From assembly GCA_049323895.1 (NCBI GenBank), contig JBMOKT010000021.1:193219-257218 (forward strand): DNA of 64,000 nt. The letters are read 5' to 3'. The first letter of the stretch is position 1; each line of letters starts with the position of its first letter. The translations under genes were made by a program, and so were the position numbers. Below the pieces are notes generated by a model, which had not been told where the DNA came from, made no database searches, and saw only the letters and a list, made by a program, of their open reading frames with translations. Shown in pieces: positions 5,488 through 52,125 of this stretch. The DNA comes from Bacillota bacterium. GTDB taxonomy: Bacteria; Bacillota; Peptococcia; Peptococcales; BICA1-8.

Positions 5488-5506
5488 TAGTTCCTCCTTA
5501 AGATAG

Positions 5507-5552
5507 TTACTAGTGACTGGTTACTGGTTACTGGTTACTAGTTACTAGTAAG
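5507..5552. repeat. family-A heptamer array (GTTACTG/GTTACTA)
   Basis: The sequence reads GTTACTA GTGACTG GTTACTG GTTACTG GTTACTA GTTACTA GTAAGTG. The sense (minus) strand carries TAG or TAA in most units. Confidence 0.85.
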
Positions 5553-7487: not shown

Positions 7488-7652
7488 AAAGTGGAAAAGT
7501 GCAAAAGTGAAATAGTGGAAGAGAAAAAAATAAAATTGACTATCGACTCTTGTTTTCCGATGTCACGGCGTCACGATGTCACGCCTTTTACTATCAAACT
7601 ATCACACTGGTTTTTACTAGCCACTAGCCACTAACAACTAGCCACTAATATA
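7488..7652. repeat. family-A drifting heptamer array
   Basis: The 7-bp register is held through AAAGTGG AAAAGTG CAAAAGT ... CGATGTC ACGGCGT CACGATG TCACGCC ... TTACTAG CCACTAG CCACTAA CAACTAG CCACTAA. Confidence 0.8.
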
Positions 7653-8947: not shown

Positions 8948-9020
8948 AAGTGAAAAAGTGCAGTGACAAGTGCCCTGTGACCAGTGGAAAAAAAGTGAAA
9001 GTGTGAAAGAGTGAAAGAGA
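8948..9020. repeat. family-A heptamer array (AGTG every 7 nt)
   Basis: AAGTGAA AAAGTGC AGTGACA AGTGCCC TGTGACC AGTGGAA AAAAAGT GAAAGTG TGAAAGA GTGAAAG. Confidence 0.8.
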
Positions 9021-13433: not shown

Positions 13434-13586
13434 AAAAACGGAATAAAAAAGCGTTTAAGTGGCCAGTTGTTAGTGGCTAGTGGCTAGTAAAAAAACACCT
13501 CTTCGCTCAGCAAAATAAAAGAATCAAATACTTAAGAAATCCATATGGGAGACCAGCTAAAATATACTTGGTGAAGTTTTGGTCAG

Positions 13587-16659: not shown

Positions 16660-16865
16660 TTTTCTTCTGGGTGAATATTGTTAGTCTGATTTTTTTCTTG
16701 GGTGAAGAATATTAGTCTGATATTGCTTTTGGGTTAAGATTGTTAGTCTGAATTGCTTGAGGGTGAGGATTGCTAGTCTGACTAGCTTATGGGTGAACAT
16801 TGTTAGATTGTCAGACCCAAAACATTACTCCTTGGACGTGTCAGACGCAACATCTGACCCGTAAG
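16660..16865 (+). repeat. family-B ~30-bp mosaic repeat array inside the etfB-etfA spacer
   Basis: There are five units of (C)TTNTGGGTGAANATTGTTAGTCTGA plus a linker, followed by the module GTCAGACCCAAAACATTACTCCTTGGACGTGTCAGACGCAACATCTGACCC. Confidence 0.85.
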
Positions 16866-17681
16866 CTAATTGGGTATCACCTCTAAAGGAATAAGTTTTT
16901 CAACTAGTGTTTTAACAGCTTGTTCTGGATTCTCTTGCCCGCCGGGGATTATTTCCCCCCCACCCCTTTCGGGTGGTGCAAAAATATTCCGTACCATAGT
17001 AGGTGAACCTTTTAATCCCAGTTTTTCAGCTTCGAAATCAAGCTGGTTTTTATCCCATATCTTACATTGATAACGGGCGGCTCTAATTAAATTATCCAAG
17101 CCGGCATACCTGAGTTCGTTGATGTCCTTAACTACTGTGAGTAATGCAGGAAGTTTAGTCTCAGCCAGCTCTTTGCCGTTTTTTACTTTGCGATAAGCTT
17201 TTATTTTTTCTTCCTGAACATCTATAGTGGAGATTTCCATAACATAAGAGAGCTGGGGCAGATTCATCCTTGCAGCAATCCCCGGACCAACCTGGGCTGT
17301 ATCTCCGTCGACAGCCTGTTTACCGCATAAAACAATGTCAACTTTTTCTTCCTTGTCCAACCTTTCGATAGCCTTAGTCAGCACATAGCTGGTAGCTAAT
17401 GTGTCCGCCCCGGCAAAAGCCCTGTCGCTTAATAAAATTGCCTCATCAGCACCGTAACCCACTGCCTTTTTCAAGGCTTCCAAGGCCATGGAGGGTCCCA
17501 TGGTAATTACAGTTACTTTGCCGCCATATTTATCCTTGAGTTGTAGTGCCGCCTCTAAAGCATGGATATCATAAGGATTAATAATGGCAGGGACACCCTC
17601 CCGGATTAGTGTATTTGTTTCCGGATCTATTCTAACTTCCGTAGTATCTGGAACCTGTTTTAAGCAAACTACATAGTGCAT
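16866..17681 (-). CDS. etfB: electron transfer flavoprotein beta subunit (FixA/EtfB)
   Basis: VCLKQVPDT... is a typical EtfB N-terminus; ~270 aa. Confidence 0.92.
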   Translation of the reverse strand: MHYVVCLKQVPDTTEVRIDPETNTLIREGVPAIINPYDIHALEAALQLKDKYGGKVTVITMGPSMALEALKKAVGYGADEAILLSDRAFAGADTLATSYVLTKAIERLDKEEKVDIVLCGKQAVDGDTAQVGPGIAARMNLPQLSYVMEISTIDVQEEKIKAYRKVKNGKELAETKLPALLTVVKDINELRYAGLDNLIRAARYQCKIWDKNQLDFEAEKLGLKGSPTMVRNIFAPPERGGGEIIPGGQENPEQAVKTLVEKLIPLEVIPN

Positions 17682-17797
17682 ATTCCTTCCCTCCCTATCT
17701 TAAATTTTTCTTCAAACTTCTTTATTTTATGTGATTTAAGTCATATTATTTTTTACCCCACATATATTTTTATAAAACAAAATTTTTTATTAAAGAA

Positions 17798-17982
17798 CTA
17801 TCCACACTATCCACAATTTTTTCCACAGGCTGAACAGCCAGCCTTGCCCCTCCCTATTATATTTTCCACATTTTCCACAGGAAGATGTGGTTTTTACGCT
17901 GCAAAAATTCCACACAAAAAAAAGCCTATAATTCTGGGTTATTCACAACTTTATCCACATTATCCACAGGGAAAAGTCCACA
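17798..17982 (+). promoter_or_regulatory. cluster of ten same-orientation DnaA-box-like 9-mers
   Basis: There are two perfect TTATCCACA boxes (17951-17959, 17960-17968). The others are CTATCCACA x2 (17798, 17807), TTTTCCACA x3 (17819, 17862, 17871), AATTCCACA (17906), TTATTCACA (17939) and AAGTCCACA (17974). A very AT-rich stretch at 17700-17797 precedes them. Confidence 0.6.
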
Positions 17983-19124: not shown

Positions 19125-19143
19125 GCAAAATGCTCAGTTTTTT
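19121..19143 (+). terminator. rho-independent terminator
   Basis: CTGAGCA aaa TGCTCAG followed by TTTTTT. Confidence 0.8.
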
Positions 19144-19344
19144 CTATACTTAGTTGGAAAGTATTACTTTTTTCAAGGAAATAAGTATAAGTGCAACATC
19201 TGCTTCCGCAGTCGCCAGAGGCTCGGCGCAAGCCGTGTTTTTCTAATACTTATTTGGATTAATTACTTTCTATGGAAATAAGTATAAGTGCAACATCTGC
19301 TTCCGCAGTCGCCAGAGGCTCGGCGCAAGCAGTGTTTTTCTAAA
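19144..19344 (+). repeat. family-C structured element, two tandem copies
   Basis: Copies at 19144-19246 and 19247-19344 each contain ATACTTA...AATAAGTATAAGTGCAACATCTGCTTCCGCAGTCGCCAGAGGCTCGGCGCAAGC(C/A)GTGTTTTTCTAA. Confidence 0.9.
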
Positions 19345-20147: not shown

Positions 20148-20290
20148 TTGTCAGTCTTTAAAGATAGATTATTAGTCTGACAAATACTAATACTGCAAGC
20201 CTTCGGGTCTGATGTACTTCTTGGTCATTTTATTGCGTCTGACAGCAGCATATTTAAGAATATCAGACTAATAATGTTCACCTATAAGCA
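20148..20290. repeat. family-B mosaic repeat with both orientations present
   Basis: GATAGATTATTAGTCTGACA (forward unit), GGGTCTGATGTACTTCTTGGTCATTTTATTGCGTCTGACA, and ATATCAGACTAATAATGTTCACC (reverse unit). Confidence 0.8.
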
Positions 20291-22942: not shown

Positions 22943-23084
22943 TTAAAAATCCTCCCTAATATTTCCTAACTATAGTCTGTAGTATATCCTAATACAAGAT
23001 TAGAAAAACAGCAAGAAAAAAAACGGCATCTTTGCCGTTTAGGTTCCGCTCCGCTAGCATAAGGCTAAGGTAAAGAAAGGGGAA

Positions 23085-23306
23085 AAGTGAAAAAGTAAAA
23101 TAGTGTAAGAGAAAAAGTACTTCAAAGATAGTCATAAAGTTTACTATCATACTTTCACACTTTCTAACTTACCAACAGCTTAGTCAGCTATTGGCTATTG
23201 ACTATCGACCATCGACAATCGGCCTATCTAGTCACTAGTCACTAGTCACCATTCACCAGTCACCAGTCACCAGTCACCAGTCACCAGTCACCAGTTACCA
23301 GTTACC
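23085..23306. repeat. family-A drifting heptamer array, about 30 consecutive 7-bp units
   Basis: The array ends in GTCACTA x2, GTCACCA, TTCACCA, GTCACCA x5, GTTACCA x2. The same 7-nt register continues upstream through GCTATTG GCTATTG ACTATCG ACCATCG ACAATCG. Confidence 0.9.
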
Positions 23307-25820: not shown

Positions 25821-25975
25821 GAGTGGCTAGTGGCTAGTTGGCAAATAGTCTATAGTCGATAGCTAATGGTTACTAGTATAATGTTTTAATTGACAGTATG
25901 ATAGTATGATGAGTAGTAGTTTACCAATTAGTCTTTTTTCTATAGCACTGTCACACTATCACACTGTCATCCAAG
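25821..25975. repeat. family-A drifting heptamer array
   Basis: GTGGCTA GTGGCTA GTTGGCA AATAGTC TATAGTC GATAGCT AATGGTT ACTAGTA ... ATAGCAC TGTCACA CTATCAC ACTGTCA. Confidence 0.8.
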
Positions 25976-28197: not shown

Positions 28198-28217
28198 TTA
28201 TCTGTCCTCCTTTTATC

Positions 28218-28410
28218 TGCTTGGTGAAGATTAAGGGTCAGTAAAGCTTCTGGGTGAAGATTGCTAGTCTGCTATGCTTCTGGGTGAATATTATGAGTCT
28301 GATTTGCTTTTGGGTTAACATTGTTAGTCTGACATTTCTTACGGGCGAAGTTTGCTAGTCTGATTTTCCTTAGATATGCTTGTGTCAGACGCAAAAATAT
28401 TACTTCTAGG
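28218..28410 (+). repeat. family-B ~30-bp mosaic repeat array
   Basis: There are five to six units such as CTTCTGGGTGAAGATTGCTAGTCTG and CTTCTGGGTGAATATTATGAGTCTGA, ending in the module TGTGTCAGACGCAAAAATATTACTTCT. Confidence 0.85.
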
Positions 28411-28417
28411 GCAAGGT

Positions 28418-29116: not shown

Positions 29117-29409
29117 TTTCTCAACTCCTTATTTCAGTAGCAAAACATTTGCTTACCATATAATAGTAATAATTTTTCATAATTATTACAATTAAAAATA
29201 AACCTTTATCATTGGTGTTATTCTGAAATAAATTTGAAACCACAGGACATTTTGGACCACACGGATAAAAATAGAACTTCATAGTTGGCTTTCGGGTTAT
29301 GAAGCTTAATATTTTCCCATAATAATGCTTTTCTGTAAATTCTGTAGCCACTGTAGCTACTAAAAAACAGCACTTTCATATAAAGTGCTGTTCTTTCTAT
29401 TCTATGTAA

Positions 29410-32861: not shown

Positions 32862-33236
32862 TTATCTCCTTTCTAAAACAACCACAGCAGTGGCATAATC
32901 TTTGCCGTGGCTCAAACTTATATGAAAAAAAACTGCACCTGTTTCACAAACCTTGTCCAGCGCTTTACCATGAAAAATTAGCTGGGGTTTGCCTAAAGCG
33001 TCATTTTGCACCTCAATATCCTGCCACTTAAAATCCCTTATCCCTGTGCCCAAAGCCTTAGAAGCTGCTTCTTTAGCTGCGAATCTTGCTGCTAAAGAAG
33101 CAAAAAAATTTCCGGACTTTTGGGCATAATCTATCTCCTGCCTGGTAAATATCCTCTCAGCCAGCCTAGGTCTGGTTTGTATAGCATTCTTTATCCTTGC
33201 AACCTCTAAAATATCTGTTCCAATACCGATAATCAT
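32862..33236 (-). CDS. acpS: holo-[acyl-carrier-protein] synthase
   Basis: MIIGIGTDILEV... The tracked ORF extends to 33284, but AcpS proteins normally begin at this motif. Confidence 0.88.
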   Translation of the reverse strand: MIIGIGTDILEVARIKNAIQTRPRLAERIFTRQEIDYAQKSGNFFASLAARFAAKEAASKALGTGIRDFKWQDIEVQNDALGKPQLIFHGKALDKVCETGAVFFHISLSHGKDYATAVVVLERR

Positions 33237-33261
33237 CATACACTCTCCATGTAGTACTAAT

Positions 33262-33435
33262 GGGTTAGTTATTGGGTCTGACATGCCAAGAAGTAAATGT
33301 ATTGCATCTGATGTACTTTGAGGTCATTCTTCTGCGTCTGACACAAGCATCAGACTAGCAATCTTACCCTCAAGCAATGTCAGACTAACAATCTCAGCCC
33401 ATAAGCAACTCAGACCAGCAATCTCCACCCAGCAG
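33262..33435 (-). repeat. family-B mosaic repeat, reverse orientation
   Basis: GGGTCTGACATGCC..., GCGTCTGACACAAGC, then TCAGACTAGCAATCTTACCC, TCAGACTAACAATCTCAGCCC, TCAGACCAGCAATCTCCACCC. Confidence 0.85.
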
Positions 33436-34779
33436 CTAATTGAGTTCTTGCTCAATCACTTCTGCTATCTGGTTCACAATTTTTTCCAGTTCGTTTAGGT
33501 CATTGCCTTCGGCCATTACTCTAATTAAGGATTCAGTTCCGGAAGCCCTGACTAGTATACGACCCCTCTTTCCCAGCCCCTGCTGAAGCTCAGAAATCAA
33601 CCCTTGTATTTTACTGTTGTTTTCCCAGCCTTTTTTTTGTTTGACCCGGACATTTTTTAGCACCTGTGGGAGTTTTTCCATCTGAGAGGCTAGCTGGGAA
33701 AGGGGTATATCGGTTTTTTTAACTATTTCAACCAGCTTAAGGGCAGTTAATATCCCATCACCAGTTGTATTATAATCCAGGAAAATTATATGTCCCGACT
33801 GCTCACCACCTAAGACAGCCCCTATTTGCAGCATCCTTTCCAAAACATACCTATCCCCTACTTTTGTTTCTTCAATCTCAATACCGAACCTATTAAAAGC
33901 CTGTTTTAAACCCAAGTTGCTCATTACAGTAACAACAACTTTATTGCCGTTAAGCTTCCCTTCCTTGAATAAGTCCAAACCGCACAGAACAAGGATTTGG
34001 TCACCATCAACAACCTCCCCATGATCATCAACGGCTAAAATCCTATCAGCATCACCATCATGGGCAATGCCTAAATGGGCACCATGCTTAAGTACCGCTG
34101 TCCGTAGTGCCTCCATATGGGTGGATCCGCAATCATCATTAATATTCAAACCGTCGGGATTGGTAAAAATATCTATTACCTCTGCGCCTAATTCTCGAAA
34201 TAATTCAGGTGAAATTTTATAGGCAGCACCGTTAGCACAATCAATTACTATCTTTAAACCAGTAAAATCAGTTCGGATTGTTGTCTTTAAAAAGTCTTTA
34301 TATAGTTCCTCGCCATCTTTAACATACTCTACCCTGCCAATACCGGAACCGGTAGGATAGGGGATGCCCTCCAGCTTATTTAAGAGAGCATTTTCAATTT
34401 GTTCTTCTAAGGCATCGGGAAGTTTAAACCCCAAATTGTTAAAAAACTTTATGCCGTTATCCCTTGCCGGGTTATGAGAGGCGGAAATTACTATTCCAGC
34501 CATTGCTCCTAACTTCTTTGTTAAAAATGCAATAGCAGGTGTTGGCATTACGCCAACCTTAAAAACATTGACACCAACAGAGCATATCCCGGAGATTAAA
34601 GCACTTTCCAACATATCACCGGAAATTCGGGTATCCTTACCAATTACAATATGTTTTTCACCTTCAAAATCCTTGCTTAAATAATAAGCTCCTGCCCTTC
34701 CTAATTGGTATGCCAATTCAGGTGTCAGCTGTGAATTGGCTTCACCTCTCACACCATCGGTTCCAAATATTTTTCCCAA
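33436..34779 (-). CDS. glmM: phosphoglucosamine mutase
   Basis: Tracked ORF trimmed to the TTG at 34779, with RBS AGGAG 8 nt upstream. It reads (M)GKIFGTDGVRGEAN and has the active-site motif SASHNPARDNG. The 42 extra codons run through repeats. Confidence 0.93.
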   Translation of the reverse strand: MGKIFGTDGVRGEANSQLTPELAYQLGRAGAYYLSKDFEGEKHIVIGKDTRISGDMLESALISGICSVGVNVFKVGVMPTPAIAFLTKKLGAMAGIVISASHNPARDNGIKFFNNLGFKLPDALEEQIENALLNKLEGIPYPTGSGIGRVEYVKDGEELYKDFLKTTIRTDFTGLKIVIDCANGAAYKISPELFRELGAEVIDIFTNPDGLNINDDCGSTHMEALRTAVLKHGAHLGIAHDGDADRILAVDDHGEVVDGDQILVLCGLDLFKEGKLNGNKVVVTVMSNLGLKQAFNRFGIEIEETKVGDRYVLERMLQIGAVLGGEQSGHIIFLDYNTTGDGILTALKLVEIVKKTDIPLSQLASQMEKLPQVLKNVRVKQKKGWENNSKIQGLISELQQGLGKRGRILVRASGTESLIRVMAEGNDLNELEKIVNQIAEVIEQELN

Positions 34780-34804
34780 ATCTATCGCTCCTATCGTTTT
34801 ATCT

Positions 34805-35178
34805 ATTGGGTAAGTGTATTGGGTCTGATATACTCCTTGGTCAGTCTTGTGCGTCTGACAACACCTGAGAAGTAGGATTTTGGGTCTGACATACCAGGCA
34901 GCCAATATTTTGCGTCTGCTGTACTATTTGGTCAGTCTATTGCGTCTGACACAAGCATTTTTAAGAATATCGACTAGCAATGTTTACCCAGTAGTTTGTC
35001 AGACTAACAATCTCAACCCATTAGAGCATCAGACTAACTATCTTCACTTAGAAGCAACATCAGACTAACAATCTTCGCCCGTGAGTATATCAGACCCGTA
35101 ATGTTTACCCTAAAGTACAACAGACTAACTATCTTCACCCACAAGCAACGTCAGACAAACTATCTCAACCCAGAAGTG
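34805..35178 (-). repeat. family-B mosaic repeat, largest array (~375 bp) in the cdaR-glmM spacer
   Basis: There are three GGGTCTGA...GCGTCTG(A/C) modules, then seven units of TCAGACTAAC(A/T)ATCT(C/T)(A/C)(A/C)CC(C), the reverse complement of GGGTGAAGATTGTTAGTCTGA. Confidence 0.9.
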
Positions 35179-35183
35179 TAAAA

Positions 35184-36440
35184 TTACTGCGAAATCTCAC
35201 CTGCCTGGGTCGATGGTTTATCTTCCTGCGGCTTAATCTCTACCTTTAATTTTATTGGCTCAACCTGCAAGACCTGAACATCACTTGGTGCGTCAGCATG
35301 TATCTCTAGTTCATGGGTACCAATCTCCAAGCCTGCCACATCTACAAAAGCCTGAATATCTTTTTCCGTCAGCTTGCTTACTACTTCATTTTTTCCTTCA
35401 ACCATTATCTTTGCCTTGTCGGCGGCTAATACAATCCTTTGGGTGCTCTTACCGTTATGCACCTTAATTTGTATATCAAAACTCTTTTTAACTGAACCTT
35501 CTTCCACCTGAACCATTACTTTTACTTTTGTACCATATAATAAAGTAACTCCTGATGGTACGCTTAAATCAATTTCCTGAATAATATTTTCCTTGGCGCC
35601 TGCCAGGGAAATAGGCAGAGTCTGCACCCTATCAATGGTGTCAAGTTTATTGAAAGGTCCAAGTATTTTTACAGTCTCAGGTTCAACCAAAATTCTTGCA
35701 ATTTGGAAGCCATCAGCAGGTTTGCCCTCAAAGACAGGTTTAACAGGCACAGTCTTGTTTGGGGTATCCTGGATGATAGGAATGAAAACCTCTACCGTAT
35801 TTGGGATGATTTTCAATGTATCTGATCCATACCAATTACCCCATCTATCCTGAACCTTAATGGGTAAATTCAATACCAAATTAGACTGAGCAGAGTTAAG
35901 GTTTACATCAGCCCGGGCTTCTGTTAAACTTTCCAAAATCTTACCAGGTCCTCTGATAACTACCTGAGAGGGTTTGACGGAAGCCTTAAAGCTTGAATAA
36001 CCATGGGCGGTCTGCCCTAGTAAAGCCACCTTAACCGGCACCTGTTTTTCAGAAATCTTATCAATATTTACTACAACCTCTTTCGGATAGATTTCCTTTA
36101 TTTCAATACCCAAAGGATTGGATATCTTTACTGGAACACTCTGTTCACCCATTTTAACTTGCGACAAGTCCAAAACAGCCTGGAAATCTTTAAGCCCAAG
36201 CCCACTGACTACTTTTTGGTCGCCGCTGATTTTGATATTTACTGAAGGGGCTTTAGAAGTAAGGGTTAAATCATCCCTTAAATTTTCATGGGAAACTGTC
36301 AGATTAAGGTTCTTTTCAACAGGAGGGTTTTGATCGGCAGAAACATAAAACCACAACAAAACAGCAAGAAGTATGGCAATTATTTTATAAATCAAGTTAT
36401 CCTTAAATGGTTCACCCATCATTATGACCTCCAGTTCCAA
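35184..36440 (-). CDS. cdaR: YbbR-domain protein CdaR (diadenylate cyclase regulator)
   Basis: N-terminal TM helix followed by repeated YbbR-like beta domains, in the conserved position between cdaA and glmM. The start may be the ATG at 36422 or 36419. Confidence 0.85.
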   Translation of the reverse strand: MELEVIMMGEPFKDNLIYKIIAILLAVLLWFYVSADQNPPVEKNLNLTVSHENLRDDLTLTSKAPSVNIKISGDQKVVSGLGLKDFQAVLDLSQVKMGEQSVPVKISNPLGIEIKEIYPKEVVVNIDKISEKQVPVKVALLGQTAHGYSSFKASVKPSQVVIRGPGKILESLTEARADVNLNSAQSNLVLNLPIKVQDRWGNWYGSDTLKIIPNTVEVFIPIIQDTPNKTVPVKPVFEGKPADGFQIARILVEPETVKILGPFNKLDTIDRVQTLPISLAGAKENIIQEIDLSVPSGVTLLYGTKVKVMVQVEEGSVKKSFDIQIKVHNGKSTQRIVLAADKAKIMVEGKNEVVSKLTEKDIQAFVDVAGLEIGTHELEIHADAPSDVQVLQVEPIKLKVEIKPQEDKPSTQAGEISQ

Positions 36441-37231
36441 TTAAAGAAATGGGTTGCAGCTTTTTGTTGTGGTGCAATTTTACTAAGAAGCAATTCTTTT
36501 AAAGTTACTTCATCCAAATACCTAGTTAACTTACCTTCTTCTGCTACAGAGATAACACCCGTCTCTTCGGAAACCATAACCACTACCGAATCGGAAACCT
36601 CAGTTATGCCCAAAGCAGCCCGATGTCTGGTACCAAGTTCTTTACTTAAATTGGGGTTTTCAGAAAGGGGCAAAAAACAACCGGCGGCAGCCATGCGGTT
36701 TGCCCTAAGGATTACAGCACCATCATGCAGTGGGGTTTTAGGAACAAAAGTATTTAATATTAGTTCACTTGTCACCAATCCGTCAACTTTAATTCCCGTT
36801 TCTACGAAGTCAGCCAGACCGGTTTGCCTTTCTATAACCAGTAGTGCTCCTATCTTCTTTTTAGCCATTATCTTAACAGCCCTTACCAATTCGCTGACTA
36901 ATTTTTCTACATCTTCCTGGGCCAAATATTCTGAACGGGTAAAAAGTTTCCCTCTTCCCAATTGCTCCAGCGCCCTTCTCAACTCCGGCTGAAACACAAT
37001 AGGAATAGCAATAAAAAAAACGGTTTGGGCCTTTTCTAATAGCCAGTTAATTGACTTTAGCCCAAAAATCTCACTAGCTACCGTTGCAATAAGTATAACA
37101 AAAAGACCGTTTATTAACTGTACCGCCCGAGTACCTTTTACAATCAGCATCAGCCTATAAATAACAAAGGCTACAATGGCAACATCAATTAAATTTATGG
37201 GATTTAAGATTTTTAAGAATTGTCCTAACAA
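36422..37231 (-). CDS. cdaA: diadenylate cyclase CdaA
   Basis: Three N-terminal TM helices and a DisA_N domain (GALLVIER, PLHDGAVIL, GTRHRAALG). Confidence 0.93.
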   Translation of the reverse strand: MLGQFLKILNPINLIDVAIVAFVIYRLMLIVKGTRAVQLINGLFVILIATVASEIFGLKSINWLLEKAQTVFFIAIPIVFQPELRRALEQLGRGKLFTRSEYLAQEDVEKLVSELVRAVKIMAKKKIGALLVIERQTGLADFVETGIKVDGLVTSELILNTFVPKTPLHDGAVILRANRMAAAGCFLPLSENPNLSKELGTRHRAALGITEVSDSVVVMVSEETGVISVAEEGKLTRYLDEVTLKELLLSKIAPQQKAATHFFNWNWRS

Positions 37232-38256: not shown

Positions 38257-38619
38257 ATGTGGCTCCCTCTTTTAGGTTTATTTTTTGGTGCTATCATTGG
38301 TTCTGCAGTATCCTTTCAAATACCTTTGGTTTTTGCCAAATATATGTCTGTCGCCGTTTTGGCCTCATTAGATTCCGTCTTTGGTGGGGTTAAAGGGGTT
38401 TTGGAAGAAACATTTGACGGCACTGTACTTCTAACAGGTTTCTTTACAAATACGCTTTTAGCTGCCTTGTTAGCATATCTAGGCGACCGCTTGGGAGTTG
38501 ACCTTTATATGGCGGCAGTTTTTGCCTTCGGTGTCAGGTTATTTCAAAACCTGGCAATTATCCGCCATCACCTGCTTTGCAGAAGCCTGAAAAACTACCG
38601 GGGGTGCCCCAGAAAATAA
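38257..38619 (+). CDS. sbp: small basic protein Sbp (DUF1290)
   Basis: MWLPLLGLFFGAIIG...SLDSVFGG...LGDRLGVDLY is typical of Sbp, between two DUF881 genes as in Bacillus ylxX-ylxW-sbp. Confidence 0.8.
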   Translation: MWLPLLGLFFGAIIGSAVSFQIPLVFAKYMSVAVLASLDSVFGGVKGVLEETFDGTVLLTGFFTNTLLAALLAYLGDRLGVDLYMAAVFAFGVRLFQNLAIIRHHLLCRSLKNYRGCPRK

Positions 38620-38639
38620 CCTATTAGGTTATTTTCGTC

Positions 38640-38765
38640 CTTTTGGGTGAAGATTGCTAGTCTGATGTTTGTGTCAGACGCTCAAGCTAAACCTATAAGT
38701 ATGTCAGACCCAATACACTAACCCAATAGTACCGTCAGACGCAATAAATTAGCTTCTTGGTCATA
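38640..38765 (+). repeat. family-B mosaic repeat inside the sbp-DUF881 spacer
   Basis: TTTTGGGTGAAGATTGCTAGTCTGA, then GTGTCAGACGCTCAAGC, ATGTCAGACCCAATACAC, CCGTCAGACGCAATAAATTAGC. Confidence 0.85.
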
Positions 38766-45450: not shown

Positions 45451-45494
45451 CTCCGACGGAGTTAGTGGCTAGTTGTTAGTGGCTAGTGGATAGT

Positions 45495-48900: not shown

Positions 48901-50934
48901 TTTGAAAAACGATGTGTAATCCGTTTTGAACCTTGAAAGCATTGCACGGAAATCTAAATCTAAAATTTCTCGGTCAAAGGTTGATAGTAACTTATTTCGT
49001 AGCCCAAGAATGTTTTCTATATTCTGTTTCGCTGTATCAAAGAGTGCCTGTGCTTTTTGAAAATCTCCACTGTTCCAAACTGAATAGCAGTAAGTGTTTA
49101 AAATCGCAGCATCCAACTTCTCAATCTCAGAATTAATCCGAGATAATGATAATAATTCATTTGGCTCAGAAAGTGGAATGCTCGAATCATAAGCGGAGAG
49201 TTCATTATAAATATTCGACAATTCATTTTGAACATTTTTATAACTGATTTTAAGCACGGAAAATTTATCCACTTCATTCCATAATGGCGCAATATCTTCG
49301 CCAACAAGCCAATTGAAAGGTACTTTGGGCGAAAGTTTGGCTATATCTAAAATACTGACAATTTCAGAAAGCCCTGTAAAAGATGGCTTATAATCTAATT
49401 CCAAGTCAGTAAAAATGCGATTATAAATAGCAGCGGCAGCTTTAATTTTAGGTAGCAATTTTGATGAATACGCACCTATATCGTGGCTGAGTTCATTAGT
49501 AACTGCCGGTACATGAGCGTTATTCCATGGGTTGGTTTTATAATCATCACTCATTTTTCCAATAGTGGTGGTAAATTGAGTAAGTAAATTAATGTAACGA
49601 TTAAATTTTTGAGGCGTTTTATCTGCGGCATTTTCAAGGCTGAAAATGATATTTTCATAGCTTTCAAGATTAGCTAATTCGCCATTTACCTGATAAATTG
49701 TCTTCCCAAGTGGTTCGACGACGGTAAAGATTTGTCGTGCATATTCATTAAGCTTTTGTTTATCTTCTTGCAGCAAGTCAAGTTTTTGATAAGCCTCGTC
49801 ATTCAGATTTGCCCTTTGCCGAGAAAGATTTAAAACGGAAGCAAGTTGTTCCAAAACATCCTTCTTGTTTGCTTTGTAGCTGTGAAGAGTTAAGCAAAAT
49901 TCATTTAGACCTACAGAAGTAAGACGTTTACGAACCACCTCAAGGGCAGCCATCTTTTCTGAAACAAATAAAACTTTCTTGCCGGAAGCCAAGCATTCCG
50001 CGATAATATTTGTTATGGTTTGACTTTTTCCTGTACCAGGAGGCCCCTGCAGTACGAAACTAACCCCTTTTTTAGCAAGAAGAACAGCATCCTGTTGGCT
50101 TGAATCAGCATCAACAACTTGAAATATGTCAGAAGGTAGTGTCTGCGTATCATGGTCAAAATCGTTTACATCTTCGTATGTAGAGCCGATGGCCGTAGTG
50201 TCACCAGTTAGAGCCCGTACGATAGGATGCCCCTTAATCTTGTCCTTATGGATTTCCAAATCCCGATACATATTTATTTTTAAGAACGAAAGCAAGGAAA
50301 GTCCTGTCTCATGAACGACTTCCCATCTATTAGTTTTTATTAACAAATTAACTTTTGAAAAATAATCTGACAGGTTTTCTTCCGCATCAAATTCAGGAAG
50401 ATCAATACCAAAGTCATTTGACATCTTAAAGGCAAGCGTAGGATTGAGAGTAATTTCATCCTCATGAAGGCTTAGTTCATACGGCGATGTAATTGATTCC
50501 AATGTCAGCGTAACGGGAACGAGGATAATAGGCGATAAAAAATATTGTTCAGAGTTAATATCTTCGCTCCATTTAAGAAAACCAAATGACAGATAAAGGA
50601 TATTAACACCCTGCTCTTCCATTGCAGTTTTAGCCTTTTCTCGAAGATTGCGGAGTGTTTTTTGCTGATCTTTTATTGCCTGATTTGTCATAATATTTCT
50701 TTCTAAGCTGTTCTCTTGCTCATCGCTTAGAAGGGAAATTTGGTCTTCGTCATAATAGGGGAATTCAATAGGATTTTCATTTACAACAAAGCTATCCCAT
50801 AGTTTAAAAATAGATGGCTTTTGTATTCTCAAATTAGAACGTTTTGAATCACGGTAATTAAGCAAACGATTTCTTTTGCCTAGGTCAAGCAGTTTGTTTT
50901 TCCATGCTTCGAGTTTCTGATCGATATTCGGCAT
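45910..50934 (-). CDS. DUF4011 / SF1 (Upf1-DNA2-like) helicase / Vsr-DUF559-like endonuclease / DUF3320 giant protein (HheA-like)
   Basis: Start set to the ATG at 50934 (RBS GGAGGA 8 nt upstream); the tracked ORF begins at a TTG at 50952. The N-terminus LLDLGKRNRLLNYR is the DUF4011 signature. Helicase motifs are LQGPPGTGKSQT (I), IIFDEASQ (II), VIAGDSKQLPP, HYRSRHE, NVQGDERD and RRLNVAITRAK. The nuclease core is GYRIDMAV...IGIECDGAAYHSARTARERDRLRQAVLEDMGWKIHRIWSTDW. Confidence 0.8.
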   Translation of the reverse strand: MPNIDQKLEAWKNKLLDLGKRNRLLNYRDSKRSNLRIQKPSIFKLWDSFVVNENPIEFPYYDEDQISLLSDEQENSLERNIMTNQAIKDQQKTLRNLREKAKTAMEEQGVNILYLSFGFLKWSEDINSEQYFLSPIILVPVTLTLESITSPYELSLHEDEITLNPTLAFKMSNDFGIDLPEFDAEENLSDYFSKVNLLIKTNRWEVVHETGLSLLSFLKINMYRDLEIHKDKIKGHPIVRALTGDTTAIGSTYEDVNDFDHDTQTLPSDIFQVVDADSSQQDAVLLAKKGVSFVLQGPPGTGKSQTITNIIAECLASGKKVLFVSEKMAALEVVRKRLTSVGLNEFCLTLHSYKANKKDVLEQLASVLNLSRQRANLNDEAYQKLDLLQEDKQKLNEYARQIFTVVEPLGKTIYQVNGELANLESYENIIFSLENAADKTPQKFNRYINLLTQFTTTIGKMSDDYKTNPWNNAHVPAVTNELSHDIGAYSSKLLPKIKAAAAIYNRIFTDLELDYKPSFTGLSEIVSILDIAKLSPKVPFNWLVGEDIAPLWNEVDKFSVLKISYKNVQNELSNIYNELSAYDSSIPLSEPNELLSLSRINSEIEKLDAAILNTYCYSVWNSGDFQKAQALFDTAKQNIENILGLRNKLLSTFDREILDLDFRAMLSRFKTDYTSFFKIFKGQYRTDKKTIKGLYKQIVNKVRDAEIIETLTSLRELDEVSIWLSENNQILAQTFGEHYSGENTDLTLLSKLIKAFNLILQSKDKLSLLAALANTLEECDADLQRHYDFLYKGMDTDWSNVLSSLNWANDFRKICENYRVNTDFIRNICTNESKINLSAKYLADLTNAIADMNTEFSWFLDIFENKDDIKGLGMLALYDRVTKCMNGLSLLEEWIDFRNARTNCQNEGLADYITKIEELHIDAALIIPMFKKRFYRLWLDAILPQYPAVLNFRRRVQENTIAEFSRLDKLQFEIAKARIKKKLIDSLPAFERFTSGVDELSILKRELGKQRRIMPIRKLFRAIPNLLLTLKPCLMMSPLSVSLFLEAESYDFDIIIFDEASQVCTENAIGAISRGKQVVIAGDSKQLPPTNFFMSSASDADFDTDVDDDEYDDTNAYESILDEAGLLPERTLLWHYRSRHEHLIAFSNTKIYKNNLITFPANVDKVPHNGVEYIYVPDGYYDRGGKKGNMIEAKRIGELVFDHFRRFPNRSLGVIAFGEVQQQAIDTVIRQMRKENQQYESFFNEDNDEAFFVKNLENVQGDERDTIIFSIGYAKDATGKFAMNFGPLTKDGGERRLNVAITRAKHNVKLVGSILPTDIEVERITREGPKLLRSYIDFAMNGSSVLLREITESDVIEHDSPFEAAVYNFLDRKGYKLATQVGCSGYRIDMAVKHPTISGQYVIGIECDGAAYHSARTARERDRLRQAVLEDMGWKIHRIWSTDWIKDPVTEGHKLIDAVESAINNYAEESEPDSQMPLSQAESEFLSINEKESGASSDNIVNPYGFEKQAFTNFSSLPRNASGYLSMGDCIKAVVNNEYPIHYELLCKNLAPLLGNEKATVKVRGEVDYALKSLKGVVRNGDFFYPSDYTKVIPKATGNTRPINYISTDELAEAMLVIVSNSYGILKDSLLQSTAREYGFARSGDRIQVNLQKAYEYLLKSGRVKETDGKVVAV

Positions 50935-50935
50935 A

Positions 50936-51145
50936 TTAGGTATCCTCCTCAACTAATTCGACGATATCCCCGATGTCAACATTTAGAGCGGTACAAACTT
51001 TTACAAGCGCATCCATACTCACATATTCGTCTTTTCCTAATTTAGCAAGTGTTGATGTGCTGATATTTGCTTTTTCAAGTAAATCGATTTTTTTCATACC
51101 TTTATCGATAAGCAGTTTCCATAGTTTTTTATAAGATATTTTCAT
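50936..51145 (-). CDS. XRE-family HTH protein (69 aa) preceding the helicase-nuclease gene
   Basis: LWKLLIDKGMKKIDLLEKANISTSTLAKLGKDEYVSMDALVKVCTALNV. Its stop lies 1 nt from the helicase ATG. Confidence 0.85.
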   Translation of the reverse strand: MKISYKKLWKLLIDKGMKKIDLLEKANISTSTLAKLGKDEYVSMDALVKVCTALNVDIGDIVELVEEDT

Positions 51146-51330
51146 TTCGGCACCTCTCAGGCTACAGTATTAAAATGCATTATATTACATTATATTACTT
51201 TTTCGATAAAACACAATATAAAATCTACCAATCTGTAAATTACATCATCAAAACTACAATTTATTTGCAGACTTGTGAAAGTAGGTAGAGTATTGTCTGT
51301 TGCTGAAGGGAGGTAGTTAAAATAAAGAAA

Positions 51331-51930
51331 ATGACTGCCGGAATAGCTGTTATCGCCTGTGTCGCATTATGTGCCACTGTGTGGCCACGAAGCGCCGAGG
51401 TCGGGGATTTACCCACCGAGCCGGTAAAAACTGCCGTAACCACCGAAATTGAGGCTCGGTCAGAGGGAATTCCGCAAATTCTTTTCTCTACAGAGTCTCC
51501 TGCGCCTAATACTGAGGGTGCCGTAGAGAGTGAGCAGGAGAACCTTGTGGTAACATCAGAAGAAAAAACAGAAACAGCACCGCCGATAGCCCTGACATCT
51601 CACGCTGTATCAAAATCCGTACCAGCCTCCACCGAACCAAAACCAGGTGATAGAACAGTCAGCGACGGCAAGCCTTATTTCTGGATACCAGGCTTCGGAT
51701 GGATTGAATACAGCGGTAAGCAAAGTGTCGAAGTCATCGCCAAGGATATGTTCGAGAACGGTCATAAAATCGGCTCTATGGGAGGCAGCGAAGTACCACC
51801 GAGAGAATCAACCCCTCCAGCATTAAAGCAACTGAAATCAACCGATGGAGAAATTTATATAATGTTCGTTGAAGTGCCTGAGAAGAACAGTACCCCGCCG
51901 CCATATAAACCCGAAGCAGTGTCCCCGTAA
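51331..51930 (+). CDS. hypothetical membrane-anchored Pro/Glu/Thr-rich protein, likely conjugative-element cargo
   Basis: N-terminal TM helix and the conserved-looking core GKPYFWIPGFGWIEYSGK...DMFENGHKIGSMG. GC is clearly higher than in the surroundings. The link to ICE proteins found next to serine recombinases comes from memory only. Confidence 0.5.
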   Translation: MTAGIAVIACVALCATVWPRSAEVGDLPTEPVKTAVTTEIEARSEGIPQILFSTESPAPNTEGAVESEQENLVVTSEEKTETAPPIALTSHAVSKSVPASTEPKPGDRTVSDGKPYFWIPGFGWIEYSGKQSVEVIAKDMFENGHKIGSMGGSEVPPRESTPPALKQLKSTDGEIYIMFVEVPEKNSTPPPYKPEAVSP

Positions 51931-51947
51931 ACCTACTTTTCAATATA

Positions 51948-51977
51948 AGATCTGCAATACACAGCAGGTCTTTTTTA
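51948..51977 (+). terminator. rho-independent terminator
   Basis: AGATCTGC aatacaca GCAGGTCT followed by TTTTTT. Confidence 0.7.
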
Positions 51978-52125
51978 TTGACTGATTATAAGAACAAAAA
52001 AATTCCGTGCAGATATCTCTCCCAACGTGAAAGTAAGTAGGAGGTAAAAATTTTGGTCCAACGGGTCCTCTCAAAGTGTAAATAATTAGAGGAAAAATTT
52101 ACTCCGTGCAGCCCCCTGATTTTTT

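Follow-up and report, generated by a model that had tools for sequence, protein, structure and literature searches.

The window, that is, the whole 64,000-nt stretch of DNA analyzed here, from an uncultured Peptococcaceae-like bacterium, contains the genes cdaA, cdaR, and glmM, and the spacer between cdaR and glmM is filled by arrays of ~30-bp repeat units. Elements of the same kind lie in five other spacers. Based on Pfam, the genes flanking the six spacers are etfB/etfA, tsaD/PHP phosphoesterase, C26 amidotransferase/tex, glmM/acpS, cdaA-cdaR/glmM, and DUF881-sbp(DUF1290)/DUF881; a gene for a fixC-like FAD oxidoreductase is located downstream of etfA. The elements, each with an A arm and a B arm, and the genes around the main locus are as follows:

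16663-16867, plus strand: element 1, etfB>etfA spacer, antisense, with the genes on the minus strand; A arm of five units at 16663-16818 (+), directly abutting a B arm of two inverted units at 16804-16867
20154-20289, minus strand: element 2, tsaD>PHP spacer, sense; one A unit at 20256-20289 (-), core ..ATATGCTGCTG, three inverted units at 20154-20249
28216-28411, plus strand: element 3, C26 amidotransferase>tex spacer, antisense to the genes; A arm of five units at 28216-28370 (+), core ..ATGCTTGTG, one B unit at 28378-28411
33255-33436, minus strand: element 4, glmM>acpS spacer, sense; A arm of three units at 33343-33436 (-), core TGCTTGTG, B arm of three units at 33255-33348
34802-35177, minus strand: element 5 (main locus), cdaR>glmM spacer, sense; A arm of seven units at 34962-35177 (-), the innermost degenerate, core ATATTCTTAAAAATGCTTGTG, B arm of five units at 34802-34956
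38639-38761, plus strand: element 6, sbp(DUF1290)>DUF881 spacer, sense; one perfect A unit at 38639-38672, core TGTTTGTG, three B units at 38667-38761
33436-34779, minus strand: glmM (phosphoglucosamine mutase), with elements on both sides
35184-36440, minus strand: cdaR/YbbR (Pfam), operon partner upstream of element 5
36422-37231, minus strand: cdaA (Pfam), operon partner upstream of element 5

The elements span the gap between the upstream stop codon and a point ~5-25 nt ahead of the RBS that follows. The A arm of element 4 begins at the G of the TAG stop codon of glmM, and the first linker of the element opens with this TAG triplet; its B arm stops ~5 nt before the RBS of acpS (GGAGAG), and the B arm of element 5 stops ~10 nt before the RBS of glmM. 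Based on the RBS and the conserved N terminus, the true start codon of glmM is the TTG at 34779, whereas the longest open reading frame starts with a TTG at 34905 inside the array, and the Pfam match to this long frame begins only at residue 45. Similarly, the true start codon of acpS, as judged from its RBS and conserved N terminus, is the ATG at 33236/33239, while the longest frame starts with the ATG at 33284 inside the array. The arrays mislead gene callers, by which loci of this type will probably be misannotated. We also note a weak AT-rich terminator-like hairpin with an 11-bp stem (38612-38636, +) between the stop codon of sbp and the first A unit of element 6.

At all six loci, the layout is the same, i.e., stop codon, A arm, core, B arm, and RBS of the next gene. 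The A arm comprises 1-7 direct units, GCTTnT-GGGTGAAGATTGYTAGTCTGA, with a 9-10-nt linker and a period of 30-31 bp; the core is a short stretch with GCTTGTG, usually ..ATGCTTGTG; and the B arm comprises 1-5 inverted units, TCAGACGCAA..., read as TGTCAGACGCAA...ACC. When reverse complemented, the B units turn out to be related to the A units (e.g., GGTCAGTCTATTGCGTCTGACA and GGGTAAGTGTATTGGGTCTGACA); therefore, what the original prediction described as a second module (TTGCGTCTGACA or GTCAGACGCAA) is the opposite arm of one element, and the units of both arms are directed toward the core. Instead of a free combination of two modules, we found a fixed two-armed architecture with an inherent polarity. 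In the same vein, the presence of both orientations, which had been ascribed to 20148-20290, is not special to that locus but is found at all six; in element 2, the outermost of the three inverted units is an inverted TAG-type unit. The arms differ in length.

The units are nonpalindromic, ~30 bp long, and arranged in convergent arrays, with the consensus GG(G)T..A.....TTG.GTCTGACA plus linker. At the seven loci measured, neighboring units are spaced by 29-33 bp in 114 of 119 pairs and by 60-64 bp in the other five; the spacing of the units corresponds to approximately three helical turns. The best-conserved positions (GG.T, a T, and GTCTGA(CA)) reach up to 1.8 bits, the others have 0.1-0.3 bits, and the linkers are semiconserved (GCTTnT or ACTTnT). 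The suggestion that TAG and TGA lie in different frames of each unit is correct for two of the three frames, which are closed by TGA at positions 4-6 and 19-21 and by TAG at positions 14-16; the third frame is open.

The units are readily distinguished from chance. The 21-nt core GGGTGAAGATTGYTAGTCTGA has 17 matches with ≤3 mismatches in the window, as opposed to 0 in 100 dinucleotide shuffles, and 21 matches with ≤5 mismatches. With a weight matrix of 34 nt, refined by iteration on the window plus four relatives, we identified 38 units in the window, all of which are inside the six spacers and none in coding DNA; the chance expectation is zero, and the control rate was one weak or marginal match per 21 kb of Desulfonispora DNA. 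Tandem Repeats Finder independently reported period-30 arrays at 16664, 28246, 33342, and 34999. These data bear out the array coordinates proposed earlier as well as the idea of a dispersed, noncoding mosaic repeat within conserved operons, with units found only in the spacers of operon-like gene strings. In a crude ORF map, 6 of 23 codirectional gaps hold an element, compared with none of seven divergent and none of six convergent gaps, and four elements are sense and two antisense, so that the orientation relative to the flanking genes differs between loci, as had been noted; the occupancy and orientation statistics are based on six loci.

Neither sigma-70-like promoters nor intrinsic terminators are enriched within the arrays. 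A comparison with Rfam, which the original prediction had recommended, uncovered no catalogued structured RNA in the arrays: with Rfam 15 at the gathering threshold, the only match in the window is a purine riboswitch elsewhere, and with E values up to 1, positions 33200-35250 have no match. RNAalifold on 125 single units predicted no base pairs on either strand, and the mean minimum free energy of the units is -3.88 versus -3.97 for shuffles. Whole elements fold better than shuffles where the arms are balanced, with z scores of -2.2 to -3.8 for etfB>etfA, glmM>acpS, cdaR>glmM, and tsaD>PHP (sense strand); z is ~0 at C26>tex and about 0 or weak at sbp>DUF881. Because only the elements with balanced arms fold somewhat better than shuffles, a stable hairpin is not a defining property, and the long hairpin envisioned earlier is a weak idea considering the unequal arms and the inconsistent advantage over shuffles.

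These observations bear on the possibility that the elements act at the RNA level, with the transcribed arms pairing as a long imperfect duplex, or the units binding an RNA-binding protein, to form a processing or stability site that uncouples the cistrons. The location within operons, the lack of own promoters or terminators, and the foldback potential of four of the six elements are compatible with this possibility, and BOX and REP partly act in this way (PMC3049150). However, two of six copies are antisense, as is also the case in relatives; the arms are unequal (5A/1B and 1A/3B), and for two elements folding gives no advantage over shuffles; the change from GCG to TAG in one arm (see below) lowers the complementarity of the arms; and there is neither a unit-level structure nor an Rfam match. 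Thus, we consider a function at the RNA level quite unlikely.

The nearest GlmM homologs (66-74% identity) are from uncultured Clostridia/Peptococcaceae-like metagenome-assembled genomes and from Desulfonispora thiosulfatigenes; named relatives by GlmM are 'Clostridiaceae bacterium BRH_c20a' and 'Peptococcaceae bacterium BICA1-8'. We compared the window with the syntenic loci of relatives (numbered with an L, e.g., L003, L004, L008, L010, and L014). A tree based on six proteins has the topology (Desulfonispora,(window,(L008,(L003,(BRH_c20a,BICA1-8))))), and the window shares a protein identity of 0.67-0.71 with the others (about 69% for five related uncultured lineages). All six loci of the window are occupied in relatives by the same kind of element, always with two convergent arms, and the arm rich in A-type units is on the same side as in the window in up to five related lineages; for etfB>etfA in BRH_c20a, the unit counts are ambiguous (2/6 versus 1/4 A-type) and the polarity of the center backs the side assignment. 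In Desulfonispora, the spacers are 0-115 bp at the five loci checked, and cdaR and glmM abut without a spacer, in agreement with the earlier notion that the arrays separate genes that are normally adjacent. Because the relatives are occupied and the Desulfonispora genes abut, we conclude that the occupancy is ancient. The comparison with sister lineages, proposed earlier as a means to date the insertions, shows by the shared spacers and polarity that the copies entered these spacers before the lineage of the window split from the BRH_c20a/BICA1-8 group and were inherited in place.

Occupancy is not invariant. The element is missing in L008 at cdaR>glmM and in L003 upstream of tex, and L014 has three extra copies at RR>tsaE, rimI>tsaD, and fixX>rSAM. 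Four lineages have the junction TAG-CTTnTGGG at the glmM stop codon in common. Moreover, the first A unit (GGGTGAAG) contains the TGA that serves as the stop codon of cdaR in L003 (7895-7897), L004 (9646-9648), and L010 (3259-3261); therefore, in these three relatives, the element supplies the end of the upstream frame. An asparaginase II gene is present between the C26 amidotransferase gene and tex in L003 (14754-15749), L004 (16670-17665), and L008 (16285-17280) and absent at that place in the window and Desulfonispora; the element is upstream of tex in both arrangements.

Could the same spacers have been colonized repeatedly? In such a scenario, a mobile element strongly selective in site and orientation, which targets junctions between a stop codon and an RBS, would have reinserted in each lineage, and the copies would be young and nonorthologous. 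This would account for the higher similarity among paralogs than among orthologs (see below), the lineage-specific copies in L014, and the start of the elements at or within the upstream stop codon. It would, however, require that up to five lineages were hit in the same 6 of ~23 codirectional gaps, with polarity unchanged, and we saw neither a target-site duplication nor a conserved target motif. The junction at the glmM stop codon common to four lineages and the spacers of L004 and L010, which are partly alignable and differ by whole-unit indels, also speak against it. Therefore, we regard repeated independent insertion as highly improbable.

The center of the elements is larger in relatives and consists of heptamers along with further short words, the order of which is fixed (GTGNCCA runs, GGTTAAG, CGCTTCGCTAG, and CACCGAN). 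In the window, the same words form separate arrays in other spacers; drifting tandem arrays of 7-8-nt words are found at 5504-5549, 7488-7647, 8990-9019, 13458-13488, 23083-23306, 25822-25969, 29342-29361, and 45461-45494. The related words GGTTAAG, CGCT(T/C)CGCTAG, and GTGNCCA make up the ordered center between the 30-bp arms in L003, L004, L010, and L015. Because the words in the window are related to the center words of the relatives, the heptamer and 30-bp families look like modules of one larger system. In the more distant relatives L012 (7345-7570) and L013 (7345-7950), with a GlmM identity of 66-67%, the glmM>acpS spacer has other word-based repeats, including GTCAGTG/CACTGAC arms, CACTTAC runs, and GGTTAAG words, while L011 has none. 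Such elements seem to have resided in the glmM>acpS spacer for a long time.

Fourfold synonymous sites are saturated between the window and its relatives (identity of 0.32-0.34); therefore, inherited neutral DNA should be unrecognizable, but the family motif and the polarity nevertheless persist. The best match of each window element is a paralog in the window (74-113 bits; 73-76% identity over 108-176 nt), as opposed to 40-74 bits for its positional ortholog. The picture is the same for the six BRH_c20a elements, with paralogs at 119-236 bits and orthologs at 61-85 bits, even in comparison with BICA1-8 (93% protein identity; synonymous identity of 0.78). Moreover, the A units of the window have switched from GCG to TAG, which is present in 16 of 21 units compared with 3 of 64 in relatives (p = 2e-10). 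In addition, GCTT has replaced ACTT in the A-type linkers of the window, and the B units of the window retain GCG or GGG. The closer similarity of paralogs than of orthologs together with the GCG-to-TAG switch shows concerted evolution; at the level of sequence, these comparisons show that the copies of one genome track a genome-specific consensus. The best link among the six window copies is 76% over 174 nt, and there are no long near-identical tracts that would point to very recent exchange between the window copies; we saw no event of mobility or conversion.

The arrays change by whole units. The elements of BRH_c20a and BICA1-8 differ by whole-unit indels, and the unit number at one locus ranges from 1 to 7 between lineages. 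Between near-identical BRH_c20a-like contigs, the sole difference is one 21-bp tandem indel in the center of an element. Over a 265-nt stretch, the cdaR>glmM array shows no difference between a subsurface metagenome from 2015, in which the same organism is present at 2-3× depth, and the source sample from 2025, so array turnover is slow on that scale. In a comparison of "orthologous" units of L004 and L010, the orthology of which is uncertain at the level of single units, the identity is 0.88 at high-information and 0.50 at low-information positions, the latter being lower than the synonymous identity of 0.78; we read this result as probable unit turnover that breaks unit-level orthology rather than as a clean test of selection.

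Overall, the units are 55-68% identical. The identity within an array (0.655) equals that between arrays (0.675), ruling out local tandem amplification, and unit scores show no gradient along the arms, ruling out polar, CRISPR-like array growth. A and B units stay distinct although they are ~100 bp apart, with an identity at variable positions of 0.29, as expected by chance. These data weigh heavily on the idea of a neutral minisatellite, in which the arrays change only by slippage or unequal exchange of the 30-bp unit, with neither a factor nor a function. The highly variable unit number and the 21-bp tandem indel between close strains are what such a process would produce; however, neighboring units are no more alike than units elsewhere, the arms have no gradient, the dispersed copies have a common genome-specific consensus, and the motif survives where synonymous sites are saturated. 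Consequently, we disfavor the neutral minisatellite, for which we see barely any probability.

Alternatively, a DNA-binding protein with an architectural or regulatory role could occupy the units as phased sites, much as BIMEs are bound by Lrp, IHF, or gyrase, and purifying selection would retain the units as insulators or organizers between cistrons, with the consensus coevolving with the binding protein. The strict spacing of 29-33 bp, the position-specific conservation from 0.1 to 1.8 bits, occupancy and polarity that are kept across saturated divergence, the distinctness of A and B types even ~100 bp apart (0.29 at variable positions), and the genome-wide GCG-to-TAG switch would all fit, and the same star-like pattern could arise if each unit were under purifying selection for a host function. 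It is less easily explained how the same locus can have 1-7 units in different lineages, why L008 lacks the whole element at cdaR>glmM, and L003 the one upstream of tex, with no apparent consequence, and why L014 has extra copies; furthermore, the binding protein is hypothetical, and the outgroup manages without the elements. On balance, we judge a platform for a host function unlikely.

Together, the old, stable occupancy and the genome-wide concerted evolution form a pattern for which neither pure decay nor local slippage nor one ancient burst can readily account. With roughly even confidence, we favor the explanation that the elements are a resident, noncoding, two-armed mosaic repeat with a BIME/BOX-like lifestyle, which is a transcribed passenger homogenized by a lineage-specific process or factor. 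Copies sit between the upstream stop codon and the next RBS in codirectional gene strings, and units are gained, lost, and overwritten, such that the sequence is continually renewed toward the genome-specific consensus. By analogy with RAYT-REP and Ssn-NTS, the driver may be a lineage-specific, sequence-specific trans-acting protein that recognizes the unit; slippage or RecA-dependent conversion would be a poorer fit than such a dedicated protein. Given that perfect matches between units are short and that A and B types remain distinct at a distance of ~100 bp, generic homologous recombination seems less likely than a dedicated, sequence-specific factor, which is hypothetical. Transcription would run through the arrays, which would be carried in the operon mRNAs as long intercistronic passengers and would be modulatory at most for expression.

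More tentatively, and with a probability that we place clearly below even, the ~30-bp units may be the recognition sites of a putative lineage-specific nuclease or recombinase or of an architectural protein, with the heptamer words as its inner modules. If so, this putative protein would rewrite or maintain the arrays in place and coevolve with them, as with GCG units in relatives and TAG units here, and the elements would represent a new repeat-enzyme system analogous to REP-RAYT and NTS-Ssn, with nonpalindromic units in phased convergent arrays at operon junctions. What makes the elements of interest is the unusually clean contrast between positions and polarity that have been frozen since before genus-level splits and a copy sequence that is kept genome specific. 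This contrast is explained neither by neutral decay nor by simple slippage or one-off transposition and points to an active homogenizing mechanism or factor in little-studied subsurface Bacillota. Little is understood of intergenic repeat families, among them REP, BIME, and BOX, and arrays that split classic coupled pairs (cdaR-glmM and etfB-etfA) would be natural test beds for the tolerance of long intercistronic inserts.

We found no described repeat family that matches the elements; the literature holds analogues only, and the elements are of a known kind (BIME/BOX-like) with their own anatomy. The original prediction did not name a sequence family, and there was no match in Rfam, in pattern scans, in the literature, or by blastn against plasmids and phages. 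The tandem TAG-type pattern had one chance match in 185,579 species genomes (in a coding region of Bacteroidota) and one in 241 million metagenome records from JGI (an unrelated 30-bp duplication), the genome of the window evidently being outside both collections; a two-unit pattern of the GCG type had eight chance matches in viral contigs, none with arrays.

The likeness to BIME/REP that had been pointed out is correct for the lifestyle and not for membership. REP/BIME are dispersed, intergenic, often inside operons, and in mosaic clusters with both orientations, and the REP consensus is species specific and retained through a long host history (PMC2817692, PMC3333891, PMC3686654, PMC3116915). 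Similarly, the elements described here are dispersed, noncoding, intergenic, and mosaic, occur in both orientations, and have a genome-specific consensus; we also count the cotranscription of REP/BIME with flanking genes as a likeness, although read-through is a prediction in our case. By contrast, a REP unit is an imperfect palindrome of 20-40 bp that carries a GTAG/CGTC tag, and REPs alternate in orientation at regular spacing within a BIME, while the units here are nonpalindromic, form no hairpin, and do not alternate, so we rejected membership in REP/BIME. Also unlike BIME, the arrays are direct, with a single orientation switch at the core and a strict period of 30-32 bp, and the host belongs to the Bacillota and not to the Proteobacteria. 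With respect to RAYT, the Y1 HUH transposase whose gene is flanked by the repeats in REP/BIME, none of the 20 flanking proteins scanned has a transposase domain. With respect to MITEs, which are characterized by terminal inverted repeats, target-site duplication, and a related autonomous IS, the arms are mutually inverted, and we saw no direct repeats around the elements, neither at the six loci themselves nor when these were compared with the empty sites of the outgroup.

BOX of Streptococcus pneumoniae, boxA-(boxB)n-boxC, is modular, lacks genes, spans 67-637 bp, and varies in size between strains (PMC3049150). Our elements resemble BOX as a Firmicute repeat with variable tandem modules and no encoded transposase, located in intergenic DNA that is transcribed for BOX and predicted to be so here. 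In BOX, however, the terminal modules A and C pair around one variable module, whereas here the variable tandem units are the arms; and BOX copies are mostly polymorphic insertions, whereas the elements here are at orthologous sites across genera. Lacking distinct terminal modules and sequence similarity to BOX, they are not members of that family. The paired tandem-repeat "global regulator binding sites" of Geobacter metallireducens consist of two sets on opposite strands at a variable distance in tens of intergenic copies, one of them between the co-operonic proBA genes, and their function is unknown (PMC2700814); those units are 7-9 nt and repeated 3-4 times as opposed to ~30 nt and 1-7 times here, and the phylum is another and the sequences are unrelated. 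NTS/SRM comprise hundreds of copies of a short motif, the consensus of which tracks the cognate, sequence-specific Ssn GIY-YIG nuclease that the respective genome encodes (PMC11893778). We suggest a repeat-enzyme pairing of this type here; however, NTS are hairpin-forming single motifs rather than phased arrays, and neither the window nor the syntenic loci of the relatives showed an Ssn-like gene.

Several other candidates were rejected. CRISPR arrays have repeats of 23-47 nt with unique spacers of similar length in between, usually along with cas genes; as originally stated, the elements are not of this kind, because the linkers are 9-10 nt and semiconserved, there are no unique spacers, and the arrays invert at the core. 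ToxI-like arrays of type III toxin-antitoxin systems are near-identical tandem repeats of ~36 nt directly upstream of a gene for a toxin endoribonuclease; here, the units are only 55-68% identical and lie at six housekeeping junctions, with no adjoining toxin gene. A riboswitch or leader, a coding repeat, and a promoter or terminator cassette were ruled out on anatomy. Further analogues are the foldback (FB) transposons of Drosophila, which have long inverted arms of tandem short units, including units of ~31 bp, and are eukaryotic with autonomous partners. The small dispersed repeats (SDR) of Nostoc are very short, palindromic mobile units tied to heptamer arrays, and heptamer arrays also occur in the element centers of the relatives. 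Neither FB nor SDR is known from conserved operon junctions.

Other features of the window include the purine riboswitch aptamer mentioned above (RF00167; 849-950, minus strand; 85.6 bits). A 97-nt unit is tandemly duplicated at 19135-19343 downstream of the PHP gene (2.1 copies, 88% matches) and represents a different repeat family. Upstream of etfB, tandem 9-mers resembling DnaA boxes (TTATCCACA, ACTATCCAC, and ATTTTCCAC) are present at 17797-17968, adjoined by a terminator-like hairpin at 17866-17890. The GC skew turns from negative to positive at ~50000-52000, with the cumulative minimum near 50-52 kb; all six elements are in the negative-skew part, and none is in the part from 40 to 64 kb, which has a putative accessory segment.
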